Part shown: piece by piece, positions 3,738 through 60,308 of the stretch | Numbering within the stretch: position 1 is the stretch's first letter | Layout: every line of letters begins with the position of its first letter | Assembly: GCA_020059045.1 (NCBI GenBank) | Contig: JAGVCW010000029.1 | Span: 39,469 to 103,468, forward strand | Origin: Minisyncoccota bacterium | GTDB lineage: Bacteria; Patescibacteriota; Minisyncoccia; Phycocordibacterales; Zambryskibacteraceae | DNA: 64,000 nt | Reading direction: 5' to 3' | Translations under genes and position numbers: made by a program | Notes under the pieces: generated by a model | What the model saw: the letters and a program-made list of their open reading frames with translations, nothing else | What the model was told of the DNA's origin: nothing | Databases searched by the model: none

Positions 3738-6080
3738 ATGAAAATTTCCTACAAATGGTTAGAAACATACTTTGATAGCCCCCTTCCCTCTTCAGAAAAG
3801 ATTTCGGAATTATTAACCATACATGCATTTGAGGTTGAAGGAATTGAGAGCCAAAATGGTGATTCAATTTTAAACATAAAAGTACTTCCCGATAGAGCAC
3901 ATGATGCTCTCTCGCATCTTGGCATGGCAAGGGAAGTGGCTCTACTTACTGGGCTACAAATTAAAAATGAGTTTATAAAGCAGAAGGTTGGTGTATTCCC
4001 AGAGTCAAATATCGCAAGAATAGAAGTTGAAAATGAAAAATTATTTCCAAGGCTTACACTGCTAGTAATTGAGAATGTTCGGGTCAACGAGAGTCCAGTA
4101 TGGTTGAGAGAGAGATTGGATTCCATAGGCCAAAAGTCAATAAACAATATTGTAGATGCCACCAATTTTGTAATGTTTGAAATTGGCCAGCCGCTGCATG
4201 CGTATGATGTTTCTAAGCTTGCCGGTGAGGGAGATATAAAAATAGGGGTACGCTACGCAAATGAGGGTGAAATACTTAAAACACTTGACGGTAAGGATCT
4301 TGTCCTAAATAAAGAAAATGTAGTCATATTTGATGGAAACACTGAAAATAAAAAGGCTTTGGGAGTCGCAGGGATAAAGGGTGGGGAGGCAAGCAAGATA
4401 AATTCAAAGACAAAAACTGTTGTCATAGAAGCGGCGAATTTTGACCCAGTGGCAATAAGGCTTTCATCCAAGTCTCTTGACCTACGTACTGATGCATCAG
4501 TCCGATTTGAAAATGGTATTACACCTGAATACACAGCGAGTGCTCTAAGTAGGGTTGCAAACATAATTCTTGATATTGCGAGCAATACAGACACTCGAGT
4601 GGAAGGGATAGCAGATTACTATCCTCGACGTGCAAATCCCTATAAAGTAGGAGTATCGCTTTCAGAAATACAAAGTGTAATTGGCACACAAGTCTCTCAA
4701 AATAAAGTTGAGGAAATTCTTCAGAGGAGAGGATATGAGTGGAAACTTGTAACACCTCGAGAGGAAATTGTGTCTCTTGCACAGAAACTAATTGGCATGC
4801 CCTATAAATTTGGCTCAAGTGTTACATATGACAGTCCAAGAACTTTTGATTGTTCTTCTTTTGTAAGTTATTTGTTTGTTCAGACGGGCATAGCGCTTCC
4901 TAGGATGACAGTTGATCAGTTTGTGTATACAGAGCAAGTTTTGGAAAGTGAATTACAGGATGGAGATTTAGTTTTTATAAATAGTAATGATGGAAAGATT
5001 CACCATGAATCAATAGAGTTTATGCAAGGTACTCCTGTACCGAAAGGTGTAGATCATAACGGAATATATGCAGGAGAGGGAAGTATTATTCATGGGTCAC
5101 CATTTCACAATAAAATCGTAAAGGAGAATATTAGTGAGGTGGTGAGTAGAGGCAGAACTCTTGTGGGCTATAGAAGAGTGTTGGGAATAAATGAGCCTCA
5201 CTTTGTGATTACAATACCCGCCGAGCGTCTAGACTTACGTATAAAAGAAGATTTAATTGAGGAAATAGTAAGAATTTATGGTTATGAAAACATAATTTCA
5301 AAAGAAATTAAAACAGAGGAAGCCGTAAATATTGATAAAAAATCTTATTATATAGAAAAAATAAAAAACTTCTTTGTTTCAGAGGGTTTTTCTGAGATCT
5401 ATTCATATTCATTCAAATCAAGAGGTGTAAGAGAAGTACTTAATCCCATTGCAACCAATAAGGCATTCCTCAGGGAAAATTTGGCTGACGAATTGAAAGA
5501 TGTTATGAAAAAAAACATTTTGAATACTGATCTACTTGGTTTGAGTAAAATTAAACTTTTTGAAATAGGTACAGTTTTCGGCGCAACAAGTGAGAATATA
5601 TCCCTGGCTTTTGCTATAAGTGGGAAGAAGGATGAAGCTTATATAGAGAAAATTAAATCTGCTCTTAATGATTTGCTTCAATCTGAGGTTGTTTATACCG
5701 AAAAGGGAGGGGTAATGGAGGCAAATATCGAGACTCCAATTGAGCGGGCAAATGGTCCACTTCATCCGTATGCATATAAAGGTAGTAAAAATGTAAAATT
5801 TAAGGAATATTCAGTATATCCATTTATTGTTCGAGATTTAGCTGTTTTCGTACCAAATGATTTGCCAAAAGATGCATTGCTCGATTTGATTCGGAAAGAA
5901 GCTGGGGAGCTATTGGTTAACTTGCGTTTGTTTGATGAATTTTCGAAAGATGGAAAAGTTTCTTATGCATATCGTCTTATATTCCAGTCAATAGATAGAA
6001 CTCTTACTGATGAGGAGGTGAATAGTGTTATGACAAAAATTGTGGGTGCGGTGACAGGAATGGGCTGGACTGTAAGATAA
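3738..6080 (+). CDS. pheT: Phenylalanine--tRNA ligase beta subunit with an inserted NlpC/P60 papain-like domain
   Basis: N-terminus MKISYKWLETYF… matches the B1 domain. B5 domain signature (…EEIVRIYGYENI) and a C-terminal FDX-ACB-like end. About 150 aa NlpC/P60-like insert (GMPYKFG…FDCSSFVSYLF…GDLVFINS…VDHNGIYAGEGSIIHGSP) sits inside B5. Confidence 0.9.
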   Translation: MKISYKWLETYFDSPLPSSEKISELLTIHAFEVEGIESQNGDSILNIKVLPDRAHDALSHLGMAREVALLTGLQIKNEFIKQKVGVFPESNIARIEVENEKLFPRLTLLVIENVRVNESPVWLRERLDSIGQKSINNIVDATNFVMFEIGQPLHAYDVSKLAGEGDIKIGVRYANEGEILKTLDGKDLVLNKENVVIFDGNTENKKALGVAGIKGGEASKINSKTKTVVIEAANFDPVAIRLSSKSLDLRTDASVRFENGITPEYTASALSRVANIILDIASNTDTRVEGIADYYPRRANPYKVGVSLSEIQSVIGTQVSQNKVEEILQRRGYEWKLVTPREEIVSLAQKLIGMPYKFGSSVTYDSPRTFDCSSFVSYLFVQTGIALPRMTVDQFVYTEQVLESELQDGDLVFINSNDGKIHHESIEFMQGTPVPKGVDHNGIYAGEGSIIHGSPFHNKIVKENISEVVSRGRTLVGYRRVLGINEPHFVITIPAERLDLRIKEDLIEEIVRIYGYENIISKEIKTEEAVNIDKKSYYIEKIKNFFVSEGFSEIYSYSFKSRGVREVLNPIATNKAFLRENLADELKDVMKKNILNTDLLGLSKIKLFEIGTVFGATSENISLAFAISGKKDEAYIEKIKSALNDLLQSEVVYTEKGGVMEANIETPIERANGPLHPYAYKGSKNVKFKEYSVYPFIVRDLAVFVPNDLPKDALLDLIRKEAGELLVNLRLFDEFSKDGKVSYAYRLIFQSIDRTLTDEEVNSVMTKIVGAVTGMGWTVR

Positions 6081-17134: not shown

Positions 17135-18034
17135 ATGGCAAATCGTCACTTGGCAAGATCGGTTGTTCTACAGTCACTCTTTGAATGGGACTTTAGCAAA
17201 AAGTCCTCGGATGGTGCTATGGAAATACTTGCACGTGATGCAGAGGAGTTTGCTCCAGGCATGAAAGACACTTCTTTCATGAATGATCTTCTTAAGGGAA
17301 TTCTCGGTAAGCTCAAAGATATTGATGCGATTATTAAGAAGGCAGCACCCGACTGGCCAATTGAGAAAATATCGATAATTGATAGAAATATTCTAAGACT
17401 TGGGCTCTTTGAACTTCTTTTTTCAGATAGAGAGCAGGTCCCACCAAAAGTGGCTATAAATGAAGCAATTGAACTTGCCAAATCTTTTGGTGGAGAGACA
17501 TCTGGTAAGTTTGTAAATGGTGTTCTGGGTGCCGTGTACAAAGAGATGGGTGAACCCGGCAAAGACGCAGTATCTACGCGAAAAAAGAACAATAGAGATA
17601 TCCCAGATAGTGAATTACCGGTAGAAAATTACGGTGGGGCGATAGTATATGCAAGTGAGAAAAATAAAATATTTGTTGCTTTTGTTCATGATGTGTTTGG
17701 GCACTGGACAATATCGAAAGGTCACCTAGAGAGTGGTGAGGATGTAGAAGTGGGAGTAAGACGTGTGATCGAAGATGAACTCGGACTTGTGATAAATCTC
17801 AAAGAAAAGATTGGTGAAAATGCTTATGTGGCCTATGATCCAGATAAAGGGAAAATAAAGAAGCGTGTAACATATTATTTGGCGGATTGTAAGTTTGGTG
17901 AGCTCAAAGCGCCAAAAGGTGGTGGATTAGATGATATAAGATGGTTTGAAGTTGGGGATATTGGAGATCTAAACTTCTATGATGACATCTTGCCATTAGT
18001 GACAAAAGGGGTGACAATGCTGCCCAACAAATAG
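17135..18034 (+). CDS. nusB: NusB antitermination factor fused to a C-terminal NUDIX hydrolase domain
   Basis: N-terminal 140 aa is NusB (RHLARSVVLQSLFEWD…). C-terminal 150 aa carries a Nudix box (GHLESGEDVEVGVRRVIEDELGL, i.e. Gx5Ex7R[EV]xxEExGU). Confidence 0.8.
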   Translation: MANRHLARSVVLQSLFEWDFSKKSSDGAMEILARDAEEFAPGMKDTSFMNDLLKGILGKLKDIDAIIKKAAPDWPIEKISIIDRNILRLGLFELLFSDREQVPPKVAINEAIELAKSFGGETSGKFVNGVLGAVYKEMGEPGKDAVSTRKKNNRDIPDSELPVENYGGAIVYASEKNKIFVAFVHDVFGHWTISKGHLESGEDVEVGVRRVIEDELGLVINLKEKIGENAYVAYDPDKGKIKKRVTYYLADCKFGELKAPKGGGLDDIRWFEVGDIGDLNFYDDILPLVTKGVTMLPNK

Positions 18035-18851: not shown

Positions 18852-19351
18852 TTTAAGTAGGATAGTGTAAAAAGTAAATAGTAGACACTTCGTATAAATA
18901 CAAAGCGCGGACCCTTGTGGGTGCCGCGCTAGGAGAACCATTAACCAATCCCTGTTTTCTCACACTTCTCGTCGCAGCAACGCCCTAAAACAAACTACTT
19001 TTTCATTCTGTTGGCGAAAGCTTACTACGTCTTCGAAGTGCTAGATTACGGGGCTACGATCCCATGACACACAACTTGAGTGTATGAGAAAGACAGCGTT
19101 TGGAAAATGAGCATTCACCGACGACGGTGTTCAAGAGAAGAATCAAGTTCTCCTCAATGTCTTTTTTGTCGGTGACAGGCTTACGCCCTTTAACGAGATG
19201 CTAGCTCGGTGCGGGCAGACTTCGCCCGGTCAATGTAGTCTTTGTTAATAATACTCATTTTGAGTAATAATGTCAAATCTGATAATAGCTCTTGTTTGTT
19301 AAATGAAAAGCAAATTAAAAACCACACATATGTGTGGTAAGAAGGTTGAAA

Positions 19352-19903: not shown

Positions 19904-22180
19904 ATGCTCCTCAAAAGCATAGAACTCTCCGGATTTAAATCCTTTGCAAAGAAGGCTTCTTTCCAGTTCACATCTTCTATATCTGCTATTGTCGGGCCTA
20001 ATGGCTCTGGTAAATCGAATGTTGCAGAAGCATTCCGCTTTGTACTTGGAGAGCAGTCTATTAAGTCGATGCGTGGTAAGAAAGGTGAGGATCTGATCTG
20101 GAATGGGGGTAAGGATGAGCCAAGGTCAAACAGGGCAGCAGTTAAGGTGGTGTTTGATAACTCTAAGAAATTTCTAAACATTGATTACCCAGAAGTTGCT
20201 ATTGAGAGAGTGGTCCACAGAGATGGTGTAAATGAATACCTAATAAATGGGAGCCAGGTCCGCCTGCGTGACGTGGTGGAACTTCTTTCTAGTGCACATA
20301 TTGGATCATCAGGGCACCACATAATCTCTCAGGGTGAAGCAGACAGAATACTAAATACAAATCTCAAAGAAAGAAGAGAGATGATAGAGGATGCACTGGG
20401 ATTGAAGGTGTATCAGTACAAGCGTCTAGAAAGTGAAAGAAAGCTTGAAAAGACGGAAGAAAATATAAAGCAAATCGAGTCGCTAAGAAAAGAAATCGCG
20501 CCACACCTGAAGTTTCTTACAAAACAGGTAGAAAAAATTGAAAAGGCAAAAAATATGAAGGAGGAGCTTATGCAACTGGCTTTGTTCTACTTAAAAAAAG
20601 AAGATGAATATATAAAGGCAAGTGAAAAGGAAATTCTAGAAAAGAAGAAACCTCTTATACAGAAAAAGGAGAAATTAGAAAAAGAGCTCCGAGAGGCAAA
20701 AGCGGTTCTTGAAAAATCCAAATCCAGGGATGAGAAAACCGAGGAGGTCATAGACCTTGAACAGAAAATACAGAATACAAGAAAAGAGAAGGATCTTCTT
20801 CTTAAAGATATCGGTAGGCTTCAAGGAGAAATAGCGGCAGAAGAAAGAGTGATAGCGCGTGAAAAGATCGGCTCATCTATGGATGGTGTGGTTCTCTCGC
20901 AGAAGGAGATAGAGGATTTCAAGAGTGGAATTACAAAAGAGATAGAGGTTGCAAAAACGAGTGAGGATATAGTGTTTGTAAGAACAGCGCTTGAAAAAAT
21001 AAGTAGTCTTCTACTTGAGTTCCTTAAGGATAAAGGGAAGAACGCAAGTGATAGAAGCAAGGAGGCGGAAAATGGGGTTATAAAACTAAAATCTAATCTT
21101 TCTCTAAATGAAGATAAGCTTTCAAAGCTTGTGCACAGTGAGAGGACTCTCGAAGAAACATACGGGAAGATAAGGCAGGATATTGAAAAAGAAAAGGATA
21201 CAAACCGTGACGCAGAAAAAACACTGTTTAGGATAGTGTCTGAAGAAAACACTTTAATTGCAGAACTTTCTGTGCTTAAAAGTGAAGAAGAAAGAATACA
21301 CTTAGTCGTAACAGATTTTAAGCGAGAACTTGAAGAATGCTCACACCTTATTGGACGGCAAGTACTTTCATATGAAAAATATGAAATAGAGGGAGATGCT
21401 AACAAAGGTGAAGGGAGAGAGGTCCAAGAAGAAAGAAGACGGAATATGGAGAAAATAAAGATAAGGCTTGAAGATTCAGGTCTCGGGGGGGCAGAAGAGC
21501 TAATGAAAGAATTTTCTGAAACTAAAGAGAGGGACGAATTCCTAGAGCGTGAACTTGTTGATATGGACAAGTCGGCCATCTCACTAAAAGGGTTAATCGA
21601 AGAACTTGGCACTAAGCTTGATATTGAATTCAAAATAGGAATTGAAAGGATAAACAAGGAATTTCAGAAATATTTTGAAGTTATGTTTGGTGGGGGCGAA
21701 GCAAGTTTGAAAGTTAAAAATCAAATAGTAAAAAAGAAAAAAATAGATGAAGACTTTATCGGAGACGAACTGGAGTCAGTAGAAGATTTATCAGCCGAAA
21801 CTTCAGAGGAAGCTTTGGCGGACAAGGAAGGAATTGATATTGAAGTAAATTTGCCACGTAAAAAAATTAAAGGACTTATGATGCTTTCTGGAGGAGAAAG
21901 AGCGCTTACATCTATTGCACTTCTATTTGCAATGTCGCAGGTTAATCCACCACCCTTTATTATCCTCGATGAAACTGATGCGGCGCTAGATGAGGCAAAC
22001 TCAAAAAAGTATGGAGACATGATTGAAAGCTTGTCCAAACACTCTGAGCTCATTCTTATTACTCACAACAGGGAGACAATGTCACGAGCTGGAATTATAT
22101 ATGGAGTAACTATGGGTAGTGGAGGAGCGTCTAAAGTGCTGTCTATTCAATTTGAAGAAGCCGTGGTCGTAGCTAAGTAA
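19904..22180 (+). CDS. smc: SMC-like chromosome segregation ATPase (short, no obvious hinge)
   Basis: N-terminal Walker A (IELSGFKSFAKK…VGPNGSGKSNV). Long coiled-coil middle. C-terminal signature LSGGERALTSIALLFAM and Walker B ILDETDAALD. 758 aa, versus about 1100-1200 aa for canonical SMC. Confidence 0.75.
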   Translation: MLLKSIELSGFKSFAKKASFQFTSSISAIVGPNGSGKSNVAEAFRFVLGEQSIKSMRGKKGEDLIWNGGKDEPRSNRAAVKVVFDNSKKFLNIDYPEVAIERVVHRDGVNEYLINGSQVRLRDVVELLSSAHIGSSGHHIISQGEADRILNTNLKERREMIEDALGLKVYQYKRLESERKLEKTEENIKQIESLRKEIAPHLKFLTKQVEKIEKAKNMKEELMQLALFYLKKEDEYIKASEKEILEKKKPLIQKKEKLEKELREAKAVLEKSKSRDEKTEEVIDLEQKIQNTRKEKDLLLKDIGRLQGEIAAEERVIAREKIGSSMDGVVLSQKEIEDFKSGITKEIEVAKTSEDIVFVRTALEKISSLLLEFLKDKGKNASDRSKEAENGVIKLKSNLSLNEDKLSKLVHSERTLEETYGKIRQDIEKEKDTNRDAEKTLFRIVSEENTLIAELSVLKSEEERIHLVVTDFKRELEECSHLIGRQVLSYEKYEIEGDANKGEGREVQEERRRNMEKIKIRLEDSGLGGAEELMKEFSETKERDEFLERELVDMDKSAISLKGLIEELGTKLDIEFKIGIERINKEFQKYFEVMFGGGEASLKVKNQIVKKKKIDEDFIGDELESVEDLSAETSEEALADKEGIDIEVNLPRKKIKGLMMLSGGERALTSIALLFAMSQVNPPPFIILDETDAALDEANSKKYGDMIESLSKHSELILITHNRETMSRAGIIYGVTMGSGGASKVLSIQFEEAVVVAK

Positions 22181-45359: not shown

Positions 45360-46300
45360 GTAAGATTTCCACATGTCTGAAGAAAAATTCCGTAGATTAC
45401 TTGGAAAAGCTATCGGGAAGCCCGTTGAACTAAAGTCTGGAAAACGGGTATTGGGGAAAGTCTCTGATTATAGCGGAAAGCGAACTCGTCCACATAAGCT
45501 TGGAGGTGTTTCGCAGAAACGAAGTGGTAAGTCCCGCGGATAGAGCGTTTTAGCTGTCCCCAGAATCCCTCTATCGTGTTTGTGTGAATACCACCTCTAA
45601 CATACTCTCTCCTAGCGTGCTGGACGGACTGATTTTCATAGCCGATCTTGGGAAGCTTTGCATATACTAGAAACTCATCTGTCATAATGGTTGCATCCTT
45701 TGAGATATTGGCCTTAATCTTGCCGAGCATTATGTGAGTTTCCCTTGCACCGATTTTGTGCGCTCTAACTTTACCCTGTCTTTCTACCATTCCCATTAAA
45801 GCGGACTTGTTCTTAAACTTTGTAGCGTGAGTGCCCTTCTTTCCAAAGTAAGTCTCATCAACTTCAACTGTACCAGTTAAAAGGTTGCCGTCTTGCTCCA
45901 TGAGCTTTCTGATTTGAGTACCTATTCTCCAAGCACACTTATAGGTAACACCGAAGTGTCTTTGTAGCTCCTTAGCAGAGATGCCATTCTTGGCGATAGA
46001 GAAAAGGAAGATAGCCTCAAACCAAACTGTGAGAGGAGTAGAGGACTTCTTGAAGATAGTATCAGCCAGAGGGTGTATCTGGTGGCCAGCAGAATTAGTC
46101 CAGCACTTTCGGCCAGCGGTGCGGTAGTAGCCCTTTACGCTAGGGTACTTCTCTTTGAAAAGGTGGTTTAGGCACTTCTCCTCTGTCCCAAATTCCTTCC
46201 TAAAATCTTTAATGTTGTATTTCATTGCTAATTGGCTATCTACCTTGTAATACAGCCATTCTAGCAAACCCCTACTTGTTGTCAAGGGATAAGTACCTAA
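45360..46300 (-). mobile_element. IS1595-family insertion sequence (ends not defined)
   Basis: Single transposase gene with short flanks. Terminal inverted repeats could not be identified by eye. Confidence 0.4.
45410..46225 (-). CDS. IS1595-family (ISXO2-like) DDE transposase
   Basis: ISXO2-like transposase blocks …TDEFLVY…NTIEGFWGQLKR…YVDEFAFRYN. The ORF is open to 46285. Confidence 0.85.
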   Translation of the reverse strand: MKYNIKDFRKEFGTEEKCLNHLFKEKYPSVKGYYRTAGRKCWTNSAGHQIHPLADTIFKKSSTPLTVWFEAIFLFSIAKNGISAKELQRHFGVTYKCAWRIGTQIRKLMEQDGNLLTGTVEVDETYFGKKGTHATKFKNKSALMGMVERQGKVRAHKIGARETHIMLGKIKANISKDATIMTDEFLVYAKLPKIGYENQSVQHARREYVRGGIHTNTIEGFWGQLKRSIRGTYHFVSAKHLQAYVDEFAFRYNQRLSPIPVFQTLVQRASR

Positions 46301-50914: not shown

Positions 50915-52243
50915 ATGTCTATAGAACCGAGGTTAGCATCAGGAATGAGAGACTATCTGCCTGAGGATATGATTCCTCGACAGAGAATGCTTGATAGGAT
51001 TCGAATTGTGTTCGAGTCGTTTGGTTTTGCTCCGCTCGACACACCGGGTCTTGAGCTCGAGGAAATCATCACAGGTGGTGATCCCAACTTTCGAATGCAG
51101 ATCTTTCGTGCAGGCTTGCGTGGTGGGGATGAAGAGAAACTTGCTCTTCGTTTCGATCTGACAATTCCACTTGCAAGAGTGGTTGCTCAATACGGCAGTC
51201 AATTGGAGCGCCCGTTCAAGCGCTACCAGATGGGTAAAGTATGGAGAGGTGAGAAACCTCAGGCTGGAAGGTTTAGGGAGTTTGTGCAATTGGATGCTGA
51301 TACCATTGGCTCAAGTATGATGACTGCCGATGCGGAGATCATTGCACTTATGTATGAAACAATGTGTGCGCTTGGCTTCAGCAACTTCCTAATGAGAGTA
51401 AACAATCGCAAGATTCTGAACGGCTTGTCTGAGTTCGTCGGGTTTGATAGTAAAATAATTCCCGATGTTTTGAGGATTATCGACAAGTTGGATAAGGACG
51501 GATGGGATGCAATTTCGGAAGAATTGGTGAAGGACCAAGCTTTCTCTCCTGAACAACTCTCCTTGTTAAAGCAGTTTCTCGATTTTCGTGCTATTAGCCA
51601 ACGAGCAACTATTGATGGTGTGAGGAAGCTAATGGCTAACTCACAAATGGCACAGGAGGGAATTGGGGAGCTAGAGGAGATTGTCTCATCTCTTGAAGCA
51701 ATGGGAATTCCCGACGACAAGTGGACCATTGATCTATCTGTTGCGCGTGGACTGGGTTACTACACTGGTCCTGTTTATGAAACAGTACTAACGGATGCTC
51801 CTGAGATCGGTAGTGTTTTCGGGGGAGGAAGGTATGATAACCTTGTCGCTCGATTTAGCTCTACGAGCGTGCCCGCAGTAGGGGTCTCAGCAGGTGTGGA
51901 TCGGATGTTTGCGGCAATGACCAAGCTTGGCATGATCAAGAAGGAACAGACCGTTGCCAAAGTTATGGTTCTCAACTTCGATAGCACATGCCGAAGTGAG
52001 TGTGAGAAAGTGGCTTCCTTGGTAAGACGCAGCGGAATCTCGACTGAGATTTATCTCGGGAAGGAGACCACTATCAAAGGACAACTTTCTGTTGCAGTAA
52101 GGAAGGATTACCCAATCGTTGTGATCATCGGCACACGTGAGAAAGAAAAAGGTGTTGCCCAAATAAAACAGCTACAATCGAGAAAGCAAGAGGATGTTCT
52201 ATTGGAAGATGTACCAGATGCGATTAAGAAAATGCTTGAGTGA
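50915..52243 (+). CDS. hisS: Histidine--tRNA ligase
   Basis: Class-II motifs (GMRDYLPE…, FGGGRYDNL). C-terminal anticodon-binding domain is present, so this is not HisZ. Confidence 0.85.
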   Translation: MSIEPRLASGMRDYLPEDMIPRQRMLDRIRIVFESFGFAPLDTPGLELEEIITGGDPNFRMQIFRAGLRGGDEEKLALRFDLTIPLARVVAQYGSQLERPFKRYQMGKVWRGEKPQAGRFREFVQLDADTIGSSMMTADAEIIALMYETMCALGFSNFLMRVNNRKILNGLSEFVGFDSKIIPDVLRIIDKLDKDGWDAISEELVKDQAFSPEQLSLLKQFLDFRAISQRATIDGVRKLMANSQMAQEGIGELEEIVSSLEAMGIPDDKWTIDLSVARGLGYYTGPVYETVLTDAPEIGSVFGGGRYDNLVARFSSTSVPAVGVSAGVDRMFAAMTKLGMIKKEQTVAKVMVLNFDSTCRSECEKVASLVRRSGISTEIYLGKETTIKGQLSVAVRKDYPIVVIIGTREKEKGVAQIKQLQSRKQEDVLLEDVPDAIKKMLE

Positions 52244-57964: not shown

Positions 57965-58823
57965 TAACACAATTCGCATTCTGCTTTGCGTGGTCTTTGT
58001 GATTGCGATTATTTGGGCTGTAAAGGGGTCGCCGAAAGTTGAGCTTGTTGTAAGAGACTTCCTAGATGGGGCAAGGATTGAAAATTTAATTGAGAATTTC
58101 CAGAAAGAGATTCGAAACCCGGGTGCTCTAATTGGCAAGATTGATGCACCGGAAACGGTACTGACAAAGGCAGGTGTAATGGCATTTACAAATAGGGAGC
58201 GTAGAAATGCGGGACTCACAGTGTTTCTAGCAGATGCCGAGCTTGATAGAGTGGCCCTAGAACGGGCACGTGATATGTTTGCCAAAGGATACTTCGAGCA
58301 TGTCTCACCAAGTGGGGAATCTGCTTCGACGGTGGCTGAAGATATAGAGTACGAGTACATAACTATTGGAGAAAATATTGCTCTGGGCAATTTTGCCGAT
58401 GATGAAACACTTGTGCAAGCATGGATGGATAGCCCGGGGCACAAAGCAAACATACTTCATAACAAATTTACGCATCTTGGAGTGGCGGCAGAGAAGGGGC
58501 TCTACAACGGAAAGCAAACATGGATTTCTGTTCAGATATTTTCGCGACCAATGTCAGAATGTCCAGCTGTGAGTGCAAGTCTTCGAGCGACAATTCAGAC
58601 GAATACAGACGAGCTTGATCAATTGCGAGTAAGGATTGATGTTTTGAAAAGTGAACTTGAAGAAATGAAAGGGGATAGAGGAAGTCGAGATGAATACAAC
58701 GCAAAGGTAGAAGAGCATAATGCACTTGCTAAAGAGATAAACGAGAAAGTCTCTGCACTTAAAAGCCAAATAGCAACATATAACCAGGAAGTAAAAACAT
58801 ATAACTCGTGTGTGGGAGAGTAA
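57948..58823 (+). CDS. CAP/SCP/PR-1-like secreted protein (YkwD-like) with C-terminal coiled coil
   Basis: N-terminal signal/TM. CAP motifs …GYFEHVSP…GENIA…HKANILHNKFTHLGVA. Confidence 0.7.
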   Translation: MKPKSNNTIRILLCVVFVIAIIWAVKGSPKVELVVRDFLDGARIENLIENFQKEIRNPGALIGKIDAPETVLTKAGVMAFTNRERRNAGLTVFLADAELDRVALERARDMFAKGYFEHVSPSGESASTVAEDIEYEYITIGENIALGNFADDETLVQAWMDSPGHKANILHNKFTHLGVAAEKGLYNGKQTWISVQIFSRPMSECPAVSASLRATIQTNTDELDQLRVRIDVLKSELEEMKGDRGSRDEYNAKVEEHNALAKEINEKVSALKSQIATYNQEVKTYNSCVGE

Positions 58824-58831
58824 GTAGAAAA

Positions 58832-59242
58832 CTAGTCTAGGTTTACAATGGTGATCTCACTTTCTATTACATTTACATTTGGTTTAGAGAGTCTCGTAGC
58901 GGCTGCATTGCGGATTGTGTAGTTGCCTGGGTTTAGGAAAACCATGAAGGAGCCTCGTGGGTTTGCAACAGTCTCTGTAACGACATTACCTCTAGAGTCT
59001 TCTATTACAAAATGATTTTTTGCTTTCGAGTTCTCCTCTCCTCTAACAGCTTTAATACCTGAGTGCTTGGTGGAGGTGCCAATAGTTAAGGAGTATGAGC
59101 CAGAGTCTGTCATCTCCAAATAGTTTATAGTGGCCTGGTATTGTCTACCAATATAAAAAGTCCAGATAGGCAGTATAAGAATGAAAAATATTACTGCCGC
59201 GAATTTGGAATACCATGTAACCCTGTCCCACTCAATGTTCAT
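58832..59242 (-). CDS. Hypothetical membrane-anchored protein
   Basis: N-terminal TM helix. No recognisable motif. Confidence 0.45.
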   Translation of the reverse strand: MNIEWDRVTWYSKFAAVIFFILILPIWTFYIGRQYQATINYLEMTDSGSYSLTIGTSTKHSGIKAVRGEENSKAKNHFVIEDSRGNVVTETVANPRGSFMVFLNPGNYTIRNAAATRLSKPNVNVIESEITIVNLD

Positions 59243-59375
59243 ATAGAAAATTATACTACATTAAATAAAAAAAGTAATACACTTAAGTCCACCATGTTTA
59301 TAAATATTTTAAGCCATTGAAAAAATGGTGAAAAAATAATAGCATAGTGAATTGTTAAGGTGTTTATGGCCCTAC

Positions 59376-59535
59376 TCATCTCGAGAGTACTCGAGATGAC
59401 GGGCAAGTAGCCCTATTCGCTTTGAGTACACTCGAAGCGACGGGCAAAGGCCCAATTCGCCTCGAGAGTACTCGCGACAATGGGCAAGCCCTATCGCCCT
59501 TCGGGGATACTCAGGACGATAGGTCTCTGGTTTTA
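59376..59535. repeat. Four degenerate tandem repeats of about 40 bp, each hairpin-forming and each starting with a copy of the tRNA-Glu 5' end (GCCCTAT…)
   Basis: Units at about 59376, 59418, 59458 and 59497. Internal palindromes around AGTACT (e.g. TCATCTCGAG-AGTACT-CGAGATGA). Directly abuts the tRNA at 59540. Confidence 0.7.
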
Positions 59536-59539
59536 AGTA

Positions 59540-59611
59540 GGCCCTATCGTCTATCGGTTAGGACACATCCTTCTCAAGGATGGAAGCGCGGTTCGATTCC
59601 GCGTAGGGTCA
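59540..59611 (+). tRNA. tRNA-Glu (anticodon CUC)
   Basis: Hand-folded cloverleaf: acceptor GGCCCTA/TAGGGTC, D-stem GTCT/GGAC, anticodon stem CATCC/GGATG with loop TTCTCAA, T-arm CGCGG-TTCGATT-CCGCG, discriminator A. CCA is not encoded. Confidence 0.8.
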
Positions 59612-59618
59612 CAAAGGC

Positions 59619-59647
59619 AAAAAATCTGCACTGCTGCAGATTTTTGT
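59619..59647 (+). terminator. Rho-independent terminator after the tRNA
   Basis: AAATCTGCA-CTGC-TGCAGATTT followed by a T-run. Confidence 0.65.
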
Positions 59648-59855
59648 GCACTTTGTGAAGTCGGAGGCATATCTCGCAAGCTTGCGAGAAGCCGAGACCG
59701 GGTCTGGAAAATTAGCTTTTGACGAAAAGCTAATTATTGTGGACCACACATGCTTAGTACGCGAAGTGTTCAACGTTGCCTAACTGCGGGCTTTATGGTA
59801 AAAGAATAGTAGAAGGTTCTTACAACTGAGTTTCTAACCTGAGACAGGAGAAATC

Positions 59856-60308
59856 ATGAATTCAGACAATGACCCGCTCGTTATGCCTTGGCAAAAAATG
59901 CTTGCTCTGTGTTGCTGCTTGGTGGTTGGACTCGGCCTGGTCGCAATTGGACAGATGGTGGCCTTACCGTTTCTGATCACAGTTGGTTTAGTCTTAAATG
60001 CATCAGCTACTGGTGCTCTGTTGATCAATGCTCTGGAACAACTGCGCGAGCGACAAAGCACCGTAGTGACCCATCGCTGTCGTCTCTATCGCACAGGCGA
60101 TGGTCTGACAGAAAGCTCACATGCGGGCAGCTTCGTTGAACTATGGGATACTAAAGGGCATCCCAGAGTCCAAAACTTGCCCAGGGGTAAGCTCTGGAAG
60201 ACGTTCACCGGAGCAAGTGGGCAAGAAGTGCGAGGGAAGATTGACTATTACCGATTAAAGCATGACATCATGCATGCCGGTGACTATGATAGTCAAGGCA
60301 TGATCTGA
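59856..60308 (+). CDS. Hypothetical membrane protein (GC-rich segment)
   Basis: Two N-terminal TM helices. About 50 percent GC against a lower-GC background. Confidence 0.45.
   Translation: MNSDNDPLVMPWQKMLALCCCLVVGLGLVAIGQMVALPFLITVGLVLNASATGALLINALEQLRERQSTVVTHRCRLYRTGDGLTESSHAGSFVELWDTKGHPRVQNLPRGKLWKTFTGASGQEVRGKIDYYRLKHDIMHAGDYDSQGMI

Follow-up and report, generated by a model that had tools for sequence, protein, structure and literature searches.

Four hairpin units of about 40 nt, each beginning with a copy of the 5' end of the neighboring tRNA, are stacked directly upstream of a tRNA-Glu(CUC) gene in a Minisyncoccota bacterium, a member of the Candidate Phyla Radiation (CPR, or Patescibacteria). 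The DNA analyzed, referred to here as the window, is a stretch of 64,000 nt (contig JAGVCW010000029.1, positions 39,469 to 103,468 of the forward strand), and all coordinates are counted from its first nucleotide; loci used for comparison are given L numbers. The array is a real feature and more than chance would produce. With a probability of roughly 0.55, it is a lineage-specific relic of a local event in which the 5' end of the tRNA-Glu gene was folded back and then duplicated in tandem, leaving the array between the tRNA promoter and the tRNA.

The Array and Its Four Units

The tRNA-Glu(CUC) gene (59540-59611, + strand, 72 nt including the discriminator A) is the sole tRNA called by ARAGORN in the 64 kb (as 59540-59611/59612) and is confirmed by Rfam at 53.6 bits. 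Its 5' start is GGCCCTATCG. The CCA end is not encoded, which is consistent with what is known of CPR bacteria; these possess an RNase P RNA, often one in which the CCA-binding motif is missing (PMC8172020). Besides the tRNA itself, nothing in the window was matched by Rfam 15 at the gathering threshold or at E ≤ 10, the array units included.

Tandem Repeats Finder detects a period of 40 nt (score 106) directly 5' of the tRNA, and a repeat search resolves three in-register copies at 59368-59407, 59409-59448 and 59449-59488. A fourth, divergent unit (59487-59528) aligns to the other three end to end. An earlier note on this DNA had described four units of about 40 bp; the tandem period has been recovered, with the array starting at 59368 rather than at 59376. 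Identity from unit to unit is 68-80% on alignment, above the 60% that the same note had set as a floor for its repeats. When the four units are aligned together with the fold-back model described below, the mean column identity is 69%.

All units are read on the + strand. The first (U1, 59368-59408) consists of GGCCCTA (tRNA nt 1-7), a 4-bp closing stem, a 3/1 internal loop, a perfect 10-bp stem with the loop AGUA, and the tail GGGCAAGT. U2 (59409-59448) has the same architecture, its stem differing from that of U1 by three compensated pairs and one U.G pair. U3 (59449-59487) is a decaying hairpin in which 7 of the 10 inner pairs remain. U4 (59487-59528) corresponds to tRNA nt 1-25, i.e., the acceptor 5' strand and a D-arm with 6 extra nt in the D-loop, to which tRNA nt 4-12 are added as an exact copy in inverted orientation (GACGATAGG). 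Between U4 and the tRNA there is a linker of 11 nt (GGTTTTAAGTA, 59529-59539, + strand), read from the sequence, whose last 5 nt (AAGTA) are also the sequence at the junction of U1 and U2.

The units open with GGCCCTAc (U1), aGCCCTAT (U2), GGCCCaAT (U3) and aGCCCTATCG (U4), which amounts to 7-9 nt of the tRNA 5' end (nt 1/2 to 7/9), or 17 nt in U4, and they end with GGGCAA(G). The earlier description, in which the tRNA 5' end is copied at the head of every unit and such partial copies are fused to a hairpin, was therefore right at its core. Some of its details hold for part of the array. The palindrome centered on AGTACT is present in U1 and U3 only, with GAGTACAC in U2 and GATACTC in U4. Stems of 8-10 bp had been ascribed to all units; U1 and U2 have 4 bp, an internal loop and then 10 bp, and the hairpins of U3 and U4 are weak (z -2.4 and -1.6).

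When 51 tRNAs from the window and 80 CPR loci were ranked, tRNA-Glu came first for upstream copies of its own 5' 7-mer (four with at most one mismatch) as well as for upstream folding energy. The number of 8-mers common to the upstream region and the tRNA corresponds to p = 0.02.

Several other identities for the units were considered. The array is not a CRISPR, as the earlier note also recognized: the units abut (spacing of 41 and 40 for 40-nt units), are 68-80% identical and are not separated by unique spacers. The open reading frame (ORF) at 59422-59658 that spans much of it exists but is spurious, because its reading frame crosses tRNA-Glu. Intrinsic terminators were rejected, since the units end in GGGCAA(G) with no T-runs and a terminator scan of 58700-60000 gave 0 terminator-like sites. 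A diversity-generating retroelement, a retron and a group I intron were also dismissed, with no reverse transcriptase and no Rfam match. An explanation in terms of XhoI and ScaI sites fared no better; CTCGAG occurs at three times its expectation throughout the window, and neither avoidance nor enrichment emerges.

Proposed Origin by Fold-back and Tandem Duplication

The unit nearest the gene is the most informative about origin. The first 17 nt of U4 match tRNA nt 2-18 at 14 of 17 positions (p = 0.008). Its GACGATAGG matches the reverse complement of tRNA nt 4-12 at every position (9/9, p = 0.014) and follows AGGAC, the 3' strand of the D-stem. A fold-back model, in which tRNA nt 1-25 are joined to inverted nt 1-9, scores 15.5 against U4, where the mean of shuffled sequences is 3.6 and 0 of 2000 reach the observed value. 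An internal-deletion model, in which the same 25 nt are joined to the 3' acceptor strand, scores 11.5. U4 has the composition by which a fold-back or template switch is recognized, namely an inverted copy of adjacent sequence joined at a microhomology or hairpin.

The following series of events is proposed, of which the fold-back and the tandem duplication are backed by the sequence comparisons. A fold-back template switch at the D-arm hairpin would have copied tRNA nt 1-25 and then the first ~9-12 nt in inverted orientation. The product would be a long hairpin with a stem made of the acceptor 5' strand and the D-stem paired to their own complement, a form still seen in U4. This hairpin unit would then have been tandemly duplicated three more times, so that U1-U3 would be descendants of a U4-type unit. 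A 3-nt deletion in the 3' arm is common to U1 and U2, and their common 3/1 internal loop is due to this loss. The four hairpins would be transcribed as a 5' leader of ~172 nt that is removed by RNase P. Maintenance of the perfect stems of U1 and U2 would then be due to a mutational bias, the template-switch 'quasipalindrome correction', or else to weak selection that favors local folding, with U3 and U4 decaying. The duplication may have accompanied a genome rearrangement whose breakpoint sits exactly at the site of the array. Slippage or duplication of a leader element, which the earlier note had offered as one of two causes, comes close to what the evidence supports.

Events of this type have precedents. 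In quasipalindrome and template-switch mutations, an inverted copy of an adjacent segment arises at a pre-existing small hairpin, here the D-arm. Homogenization of inverted-repeat arms by template switching is documented (PMC7202029, PMC8604942), and the arms of quasipalindromes can later be 'corrected' towards complementarity in a way that mimics compensatory evolution (PMC7202029, PMC8604942, PMC7954356). The mutational events in that literature are mostly in genes or reporter constructs, with no four-unit array fixed in a tRNA leader. Judged from the composition of the units, a template-switch mechanism appears to have operated here as well.

Partial tRNA copies in tandem repeats are likewise of a known kind, because they occur at the tyrT/tyrV (tpr) locus of E. 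coli K-12. The 178-bp repeats of that locus (start-to-start spacing 178 and 178) share 95% identity, and the copy nearest the tRNA extends over the final 19 nt of tyrV; annotation assigns the region to the small RNA RttR. As in the window, the tandem repeats of tyrT-tyrV-rttR are contiguous and co-oriented with the tRNA and carry a terminal segment of it. The E. coli repeats, however, are downstream of the tRNA, contain its 3' end and are 178 bp long, whereas those in the window are upstream, contain the 5' end and are 40 bp long. The E. coli units also lack an inverted fold-back copy, and none of them is a simple hairpin. What the window adds is a new variation on this theme, with fold-back hairpins of the 5' end placed in a leader.

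If the array arose in this way, it would provide a stepwise view of how a tRNA 5' end is folded back and reiterated, with the intermediate form (U4) still beside the gene. It would also illustrate that apparent 'compensatory evolution' can arise in palindromic DNA without RNA function, a caution for those who search for RNA motifs, and it would suggest that tRNA borders in these reduced genomes are hot spots of local duplication and rearrangement.

Hairpin Strength and Stem Evolution

The hairpins differ greatly in strength. U1 (-23.3 kcal/mol, z -5.8) and U2 (-22.4 kcal/mol, z -7.1) fold better than any of 200 shuffles, and U3 reaches only -14.5 kcal/mol. The fold of U1 and U2 runs from GCCC through a 3-nt bulge, the perfect 10-bp stem, a 4-nt loop and 1 nt to GGGC and then AA. 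Relative to the inferred ancestral stem (TCGCCTCGAG/CTCGAGGCGA), U1 has four transitions that form two compensated pairs, and U2 has three changes, i.e., one compensated pair and one U.G. U3 also has three changes, none of them compensated.

The minimum free energies (MFE) summed over the units are -76.1 kcal/mol for the + strand and -79.4 for the - strand, with U3 and U4 folding better on the - strand. Neither the unit MFE on both strands nor the wobble pairs of the + strand give a strand-specific signal, as expected of a DNA palindrome rather than of a selected RNA.

The palindromic units could in principle be operators, i.e., protein-binding sites about four helical turns apart, for a regulator that acts on the tRNA promoter or on the divergent 136-aa gene. 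The regular phasing of 40-41 bp and the location of the array between divergent promoter-like sites are what such an arrangement would call for. Binding sites conserve sequence, whereas the arms of these units covary and diverge by 20-32%, and no half-site conserved across the units was seen beyond GAG...CTC. There is no regulator gene nearby, and derivation from the tRNA explains the sequence without a binding protein. Operators are thus an extremely improbable explanation.

Candidate Promoters, Putative Leader and Predicted Folding of the Precursor

Transcription of the array as a leader is proposed because plausible promoters are confined to the stretch upstream of U1, with none adjoining the tRNA. 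One candidate is the promoter-like TTGAAA-17 nt-TAGCAT at 59317-59345 (+ strand, 9/12 of the consensus), from which a transcript would start ~15 nt before U1; two such consensus matches were found where shuffled sequences lead one to expect 2.6. The other is an extended -10-like TGtTAAGGT at 59353-59361 (+ strand), 6 nt before U1, which was read from the sequence and aligned with eight relatives (L095, L099, L102, L109, L093, L106, L110 and L103). In these relatives a terminator and the conserved TTTTTTTTGTTATAAAACAxAxAC abut nt 1 of tRNA-Glu (GGCCC). This junction includes the extended -10-like TGtTATAAA, in a promoter-like TGTTATAAA followed by 8 nt. With a promoter-like element directly abutting the tRNA, its transcript would be nearly leaderless in all eight.

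From a modest similarity, the TGtTAAGGT of the window may be what is left of the TGtTATAAA promoter found right beside the tRNA in the relatives. The flanks preceding U1 and preceding the tRNA are each only modestly like the relatives' promoter, and the stretch before tRNA-Glu (TTTTAA, 3 nt from G1) fails to keep key -10 positions. On the other side of the gene, a terminator-like hairpin (AAAAATCTGCA/TGCAGATTTTT, 59620-59645, + strand) is formed by an 11-nt inverted repeat with 100% complementarity, and its 3' arm ends in a T-run. Conservation of this stretch extends to the trailers of L102, L109, L112 and L096.

The predicted folding of such a precursor is unfavorable for the tRNA. By itself, tRNA-Glu is predicted to form a cloverleaf at equilibrium, with a mean probability of correct acceptor pairing of 0.88. 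In the full precursor this value drops to 1e-5. It is 0.04 if the 3' arms of the hairpins are scrambled and 0.32 if the whole leader is shuffled. In the full precursor the 3' acceptor strand of the tRNA is predicted to pair with the pseudo-5' end of U1 (P = 0.97), while the 3' arm of U4 captures the true 5' end. A fold in which everything is local (four hairpins, cloverleaf and terminator) has -118.9 kcal/mol versus -133.4 for the MFE structure. The idea that the hairpins sequester the pseudo-5' ends and so protect tRNA folding is unsupported at equilibrium, because scrambling their 3' arms did not worsen the predicted folding of the tRNA. If the array is transcribed, a tRNA that is nearly leaderless in relatives has gained a 172-nt leader predicted to compete with its folding. 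Correct maturation would then rely on co-transcriptional folding, and the locus would be a natural test case for that process and for the substrate choice of RNase P in CPR bacteria.

Several points weigh against regarding the array as a mere relic. Although U1 and U2 are 32% diverged, all 14 of their 14 pairs have been kept, through three compensated double changes and one wobble. The probability that random substitution would keep all ten inner pairs is ~0.03 for U1 and ~0.06 for U2, and some structure-preserving process has therefore acted on both. This could be template-switch correction of quasipalindromes, or it could be selection on structure, and the second option would tell against a relic. 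Transcription of the array is suggested by weak consensus matches only. Where the array is transcribed, the equilibrium model makes it a folding hazard for tRNA-Glu, and it is awkward for a neutral relic to put an essential tRNA at risk in a streamlined genome, unless folding during transcription comes to the rescue. Finally, no strain-level relative exists from which the age, copy-number variation and conservation of the array could be gauged. The modeled hazard is in keeping with a relic that is slightly deleterious and became fixed by drift, and it is just as compatible with a kinetic switch composed of decoy, antisense and true end.

Such a switch is one form of the view that selection maintains the four hairpins as RNA elements, transcribed together with the tRNA in a functional structured leader. 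The 3' arm of U4 (antisense to the true 5' end) and its 5' arm (the decoy) would control the maturation of tRNA-Glu(CUC). The hairpins could otherwise be 5' protective stem-loops, or acceptor-mimicking minihelix RNAs released by RNase P. Such a function would account for the compensatory changes that keep the stems of U1 and U2 perfect, for the extreme energies of these hairpins and for plausible promoters found upstream of U1 only. It would also give a role to the 3' arm of U4, a perfect 9-nt antisense to tRNA nt 4-12 that is predicted to capture this segment. Furthermore, the mirror image of the U4 arrangement recurs after other CPR tRNAs, with the true end first, then an inverted copy and then a direct one.

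The closing stem GCCC/GGGC followed by an A resembles an acceptor stem with its discriminator, and the units are like the tRNA minihelix substrates of RNase P in having an acceptor-like closing helix and an unpaired A within a precursor that RNase P must cut. The closing stem is just 4 bp, however, versus 7 bp for an acceptor. There is no T-loop, and the units are not recognized by ARAGORN or by the Rfam tRNA model (RF00005). A selected leader is also at odds with the decay of U3 and U4, the lack of a + strand-specific wobble signal and the outcome of scrambling the hairpin arms (1e-5 intact versus 0.04), as well as with the failure to find the array in 1.7 Mb of CPR DNA or on any of the 22 contigs that carry this tRNA (see below). 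Taken together, a functional leader is unlikely, although it deserves to be kept in mind.

Relatives and the Loss of Synteny

A metagenome search in which the full tRNA-Glu sequence served as pattern, with N at loop positions only, recovered the same tRNA on 22 contigs, with 0-3 differences at the freed loop positions. None of these contigs contains the array, a result that supplies the comparison with related loci suggested in the earlier note. The relatives become homologous to the window at 59539/59540, except for two loci in which homology sets in 6-8 nt earlier, and in L096 it runs ~170 nt downstream. A covariance model of the units (R1) found no other convincing copy in 1.5 Mb plus 0.2 Mb of CPR DNA (1.7 Mb total), and neither this model nor a pattern search found one elsewhere in the window. 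A viral contig collection gave 0 matches for the unit pattern and none for the tRNA.

The source genome belongs to the class Paceibacteria and is close to Candidatus Zambryskibacteria. Its TypA is at most 76% identical to that of any of the 80 GTDB species representatives returned, and the closest TypA proteins in a set of 5.8 billion are 82-83% identical. The genomes encoding the latter retain the order typA, a 78-aa ORF, bPH, CAP and a homologue of the 136-aa gene, and synteny is lost exactly at the array. No tRNA-Glu was found near these anchors in the closest relatives by TypA or by YibE/F (73-81%), nor at the syntenic position in a TypA-anchored comparison of 80 GTDB genomes. The YibE/F gene, 2 kb downstream of the array, gave no synteny with relatives when used as an anchor. 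Around the array (59243-59367, and from 59612 onward), nothing between 59.3 and 64 kb matches the 10-kb flanks of L081-L090. The flanking 136-aa and 150-aa proteins have no record as encoded genes; the 136-aa protein retrieved only itself from the 5.8-billion-protein set, and tblastn detected homologues of 33-43% identity in relatives. Because the array is absent elsewhere and synteny is lost at its site, it is a singleton at a rearrangement breakpoint. It may be the scar of a rearrangement junction rather than the footprint of an integrase.

The other cause that the earlier note had put forward is that a mobile element was inserted at a tRNA attachment site and excised again, by site-specific recombination and more than once. 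In favor of this, the tRNA-Glu gene lies at a synteny breakpoint relative to the nearest relatives. L096 and L105 are alike upstream of the tRNA and diverge right after its 3' end, so that these tRNA genes, too, border variable DNA. When an integrase targets a tRNA gene, the part of the tRNA between the crossover and the 3' end is duplicated, with the copy at the far end of the element. Remnants of attachment sites resemble the array in being partial tRNA copies near a tRNA at the border of variable gene content, but they are 3'-end copies, separated from the gene by an element that comes with an integrase, and none of this holds for the array. The copies in the window are of the 5' end, head to tail with no intervening DNA, and each unit contains an inverted copy, unlike the product of a recombinase crossover.

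There is no other copy of the 5' 20-mer or 3' 22-mer of the tRNA at ≤3 mismatches in the 64 kb. No integrase was detected among the 40 window ORFs scanned with Pfam (19 other candidate ORFs were outside the scan), and by inspection no recombinase-like ORF is evident beside the tRNA in L105. The only mobile-element gene found in the window is that of an IS1595-family (ISXO2-like DDE) transposase at 45410-46285 (- strand, E 1.5e-36), 13 kb away. The GC-richer block said to begin at the tRNA was not found, since GC in successive 1-kb segments after it is 0.43, 0.46, 0.42, 0.41 and 0.46, and over the 8 kb before it 0.41-0.48; composition does not shift at this site. Integration scars are accordingly a most improbable origin.

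Insertion of a small non-autonomous mobile element, or of an element like the repetitive extragenic palindromic (REP) sequences, at tRNA position 7/8 would make GGCCCTA a target-site duplication. This heptamer does flank the 172-nt block (59368-59374 and 59540-59546), the units are imperfect palindromes like REPs, and a possible source of transposase is present in the IS1595-family gene. The block, however, has no terminal inverted repeats and holds three further copies of the supposed target, and no Y1 or REP-associated tyrosine transposase (RAYT) was detected among the ORFs scanned. REP and miniature inverted-repeat families are dispersed and multi-copy, whereas no other copy of the unit exists in the window or in the 1.7 Mb of related DNA. 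The array has in common with REPs and bacterial interspersed mosaic elements (BIMEs) the clustering of imperfect intergenic palindromes of ~40 nt and a hairpin kept through paired changes. Those elements occur in tens to hundreds of dispersed copies, usually in alternating orientation, and are associated with RAYTs; the unit described here occurs at one locus, always in direct orientation, and is derived from the neighboring tRNA. An inserted element of this kind is very unlikely.

Copies of tRNA Ends at Other CPR tRNAs

Other CPR loci contain partial copies of tRNAs, in several arrangements. In L061, 2.6 tandem copies of a 35-nt unit (1061-1152, 92% matches) occur at a tRNA-Val(TAC) gene (1010-1083, - strand). 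Each unit is made up of a 12-nt leader and tRNA-Val nt 1-23, a second CPR case of reiterated tRNA 5' ends, this one without hairpins. In L034, a 13-nt exact copy of the 5' end of tRNA-Ser is found 154 nt upstream of the gene. The leader of L112 (~610-663, between promoter and tRNA) includes CATCC-N7-GGATG, which reproduces the anticodon stem exactly and has a loop of the same length.

A 50-nt perfect palindrome is located ~60-110 nt upstream of the tRNA in L108 (~830-880, read on the - strand), its similarity to the tRNA not being significant. A different tandem repeat, of 54 nt, occurs ~60-75 nt upstream of tRNA-Glu(CUC) in L105 (984-1152, ~3 copies) and L096 (~1787-1895, 2 copies). Since the two come from the same groundwater site, the copy number of this repeat varies between close strains. 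Each 54-nt unit holds the tRNA 8-mer CGCGTAGG, which is not significant alone. Putative tRNA relics picked out by eye upstream of the gene in L096/L105, L097 and L108 failed shuffle tests, and only the window and the anticodon-stem copy of L112 stood out.

At least five CPR tRNAs are followed by copies of their own 3' end. The T-arm/acceptor 3' strand of the tRNA recurs in inverted form (10-18 nt) at +37 to +74, and a direct copy (10-19 nt) of the 3' end occurs at +130 to +153. Examples are L087 at ~5655-5785 (tRNA-Gln, - strand) and 709-860 (tRNA-Leu), L066 (tRNA-Phe, 19261-19334, - strand), L034 (tRNA-Arg, 20353-20425) and L097 (tRNA-Glu, 1835-1906). The layout mirrors that of U4 in the window, where direct copy, inverted copy and true end follow one another. 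In L066 the similarity extends into the trailer, which beyond the direct copy is like that of the tRNA itself and points to a tandem repeat of the E. coli tyrT kind. A gene-free gap noticed upstream of the tRNA-Gln of L087 proved to be dnaX with masked bases.

One could see the array as part of a wider, hitherto undescribed habit among CPR tRNAs, in which decoy and antisense copies of a tRNA's own ends, upstream at tRNA-Glu and downstream at other tRNAs, would act as a co-transcriptional folding switch or as end-mimicking hairpin RNAs that gate maturation by RNase P or RNase Z. This is rather improbable.

Between the downstream copies, after the terminator hairpin, there is a conserved, structured RNA motif with the order GGAG, hairpin, GAGGYGGGGUCG, A/U-rich hairpin, GUGAC. 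RNAalifold identifies compensatory double changes at 11 of 21 pairs in five sequences, and an invariant G.U pair works on the tRNA strand only. The motif has been located in L087 (5655-5717, - strand, and 779-841, + strand), L091 (559-621, - strand), L012 (19-84, - strand) and L096 (2093-2156, + strand), and no Rfam family matches it. A diverged copy is present in the window at 59658-59744 (+ strand), as a neighbor of the array and not a part of it. A covariance model of the motif (R2), built without the window, scores 29.8 bits in L096 and 19.9 bits in the window (E 0.014 in 1.6 Mb, 1.3e-5 locally). Some matches to R2 are away from tRNAs, e.g., L008 3168-3224, L047 5611-5662 and L010 4204-4258. 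This trailer motif may be of wider interest than the array.

Other Genes in the Window

The Pfam scan identified housekeeping genes, namely those of phenylalanyl-tRNA synthetase (PheRS), GyrB, RNase HII, NusB, RNase III, TrmD, RNase R and SMC, and genes for RNA polymerase, DnaG and sigma-70 were placed in the window by synteny with the annotated loci of relatives. The PheRS beta chain (3738-6080, + strand) has an NlpC/P60 peptidase domain (residues 353-472, E 5.5e-17) between its B3_4 and B5 domains, where such an insertion is unusual. A single ORF (17135-18034, + strand) joins NusB (residues 7-136) to a NUDIX hydrolase domain (residues 186-276). The HisRS-like protein encoded at 50915-52243 (+ strand) is 74% identical to that of L082 and ~26% identical to the syntenic HisRS of L081, L086 and L087; two very different types of HisRS therefore alternate among close relatives.

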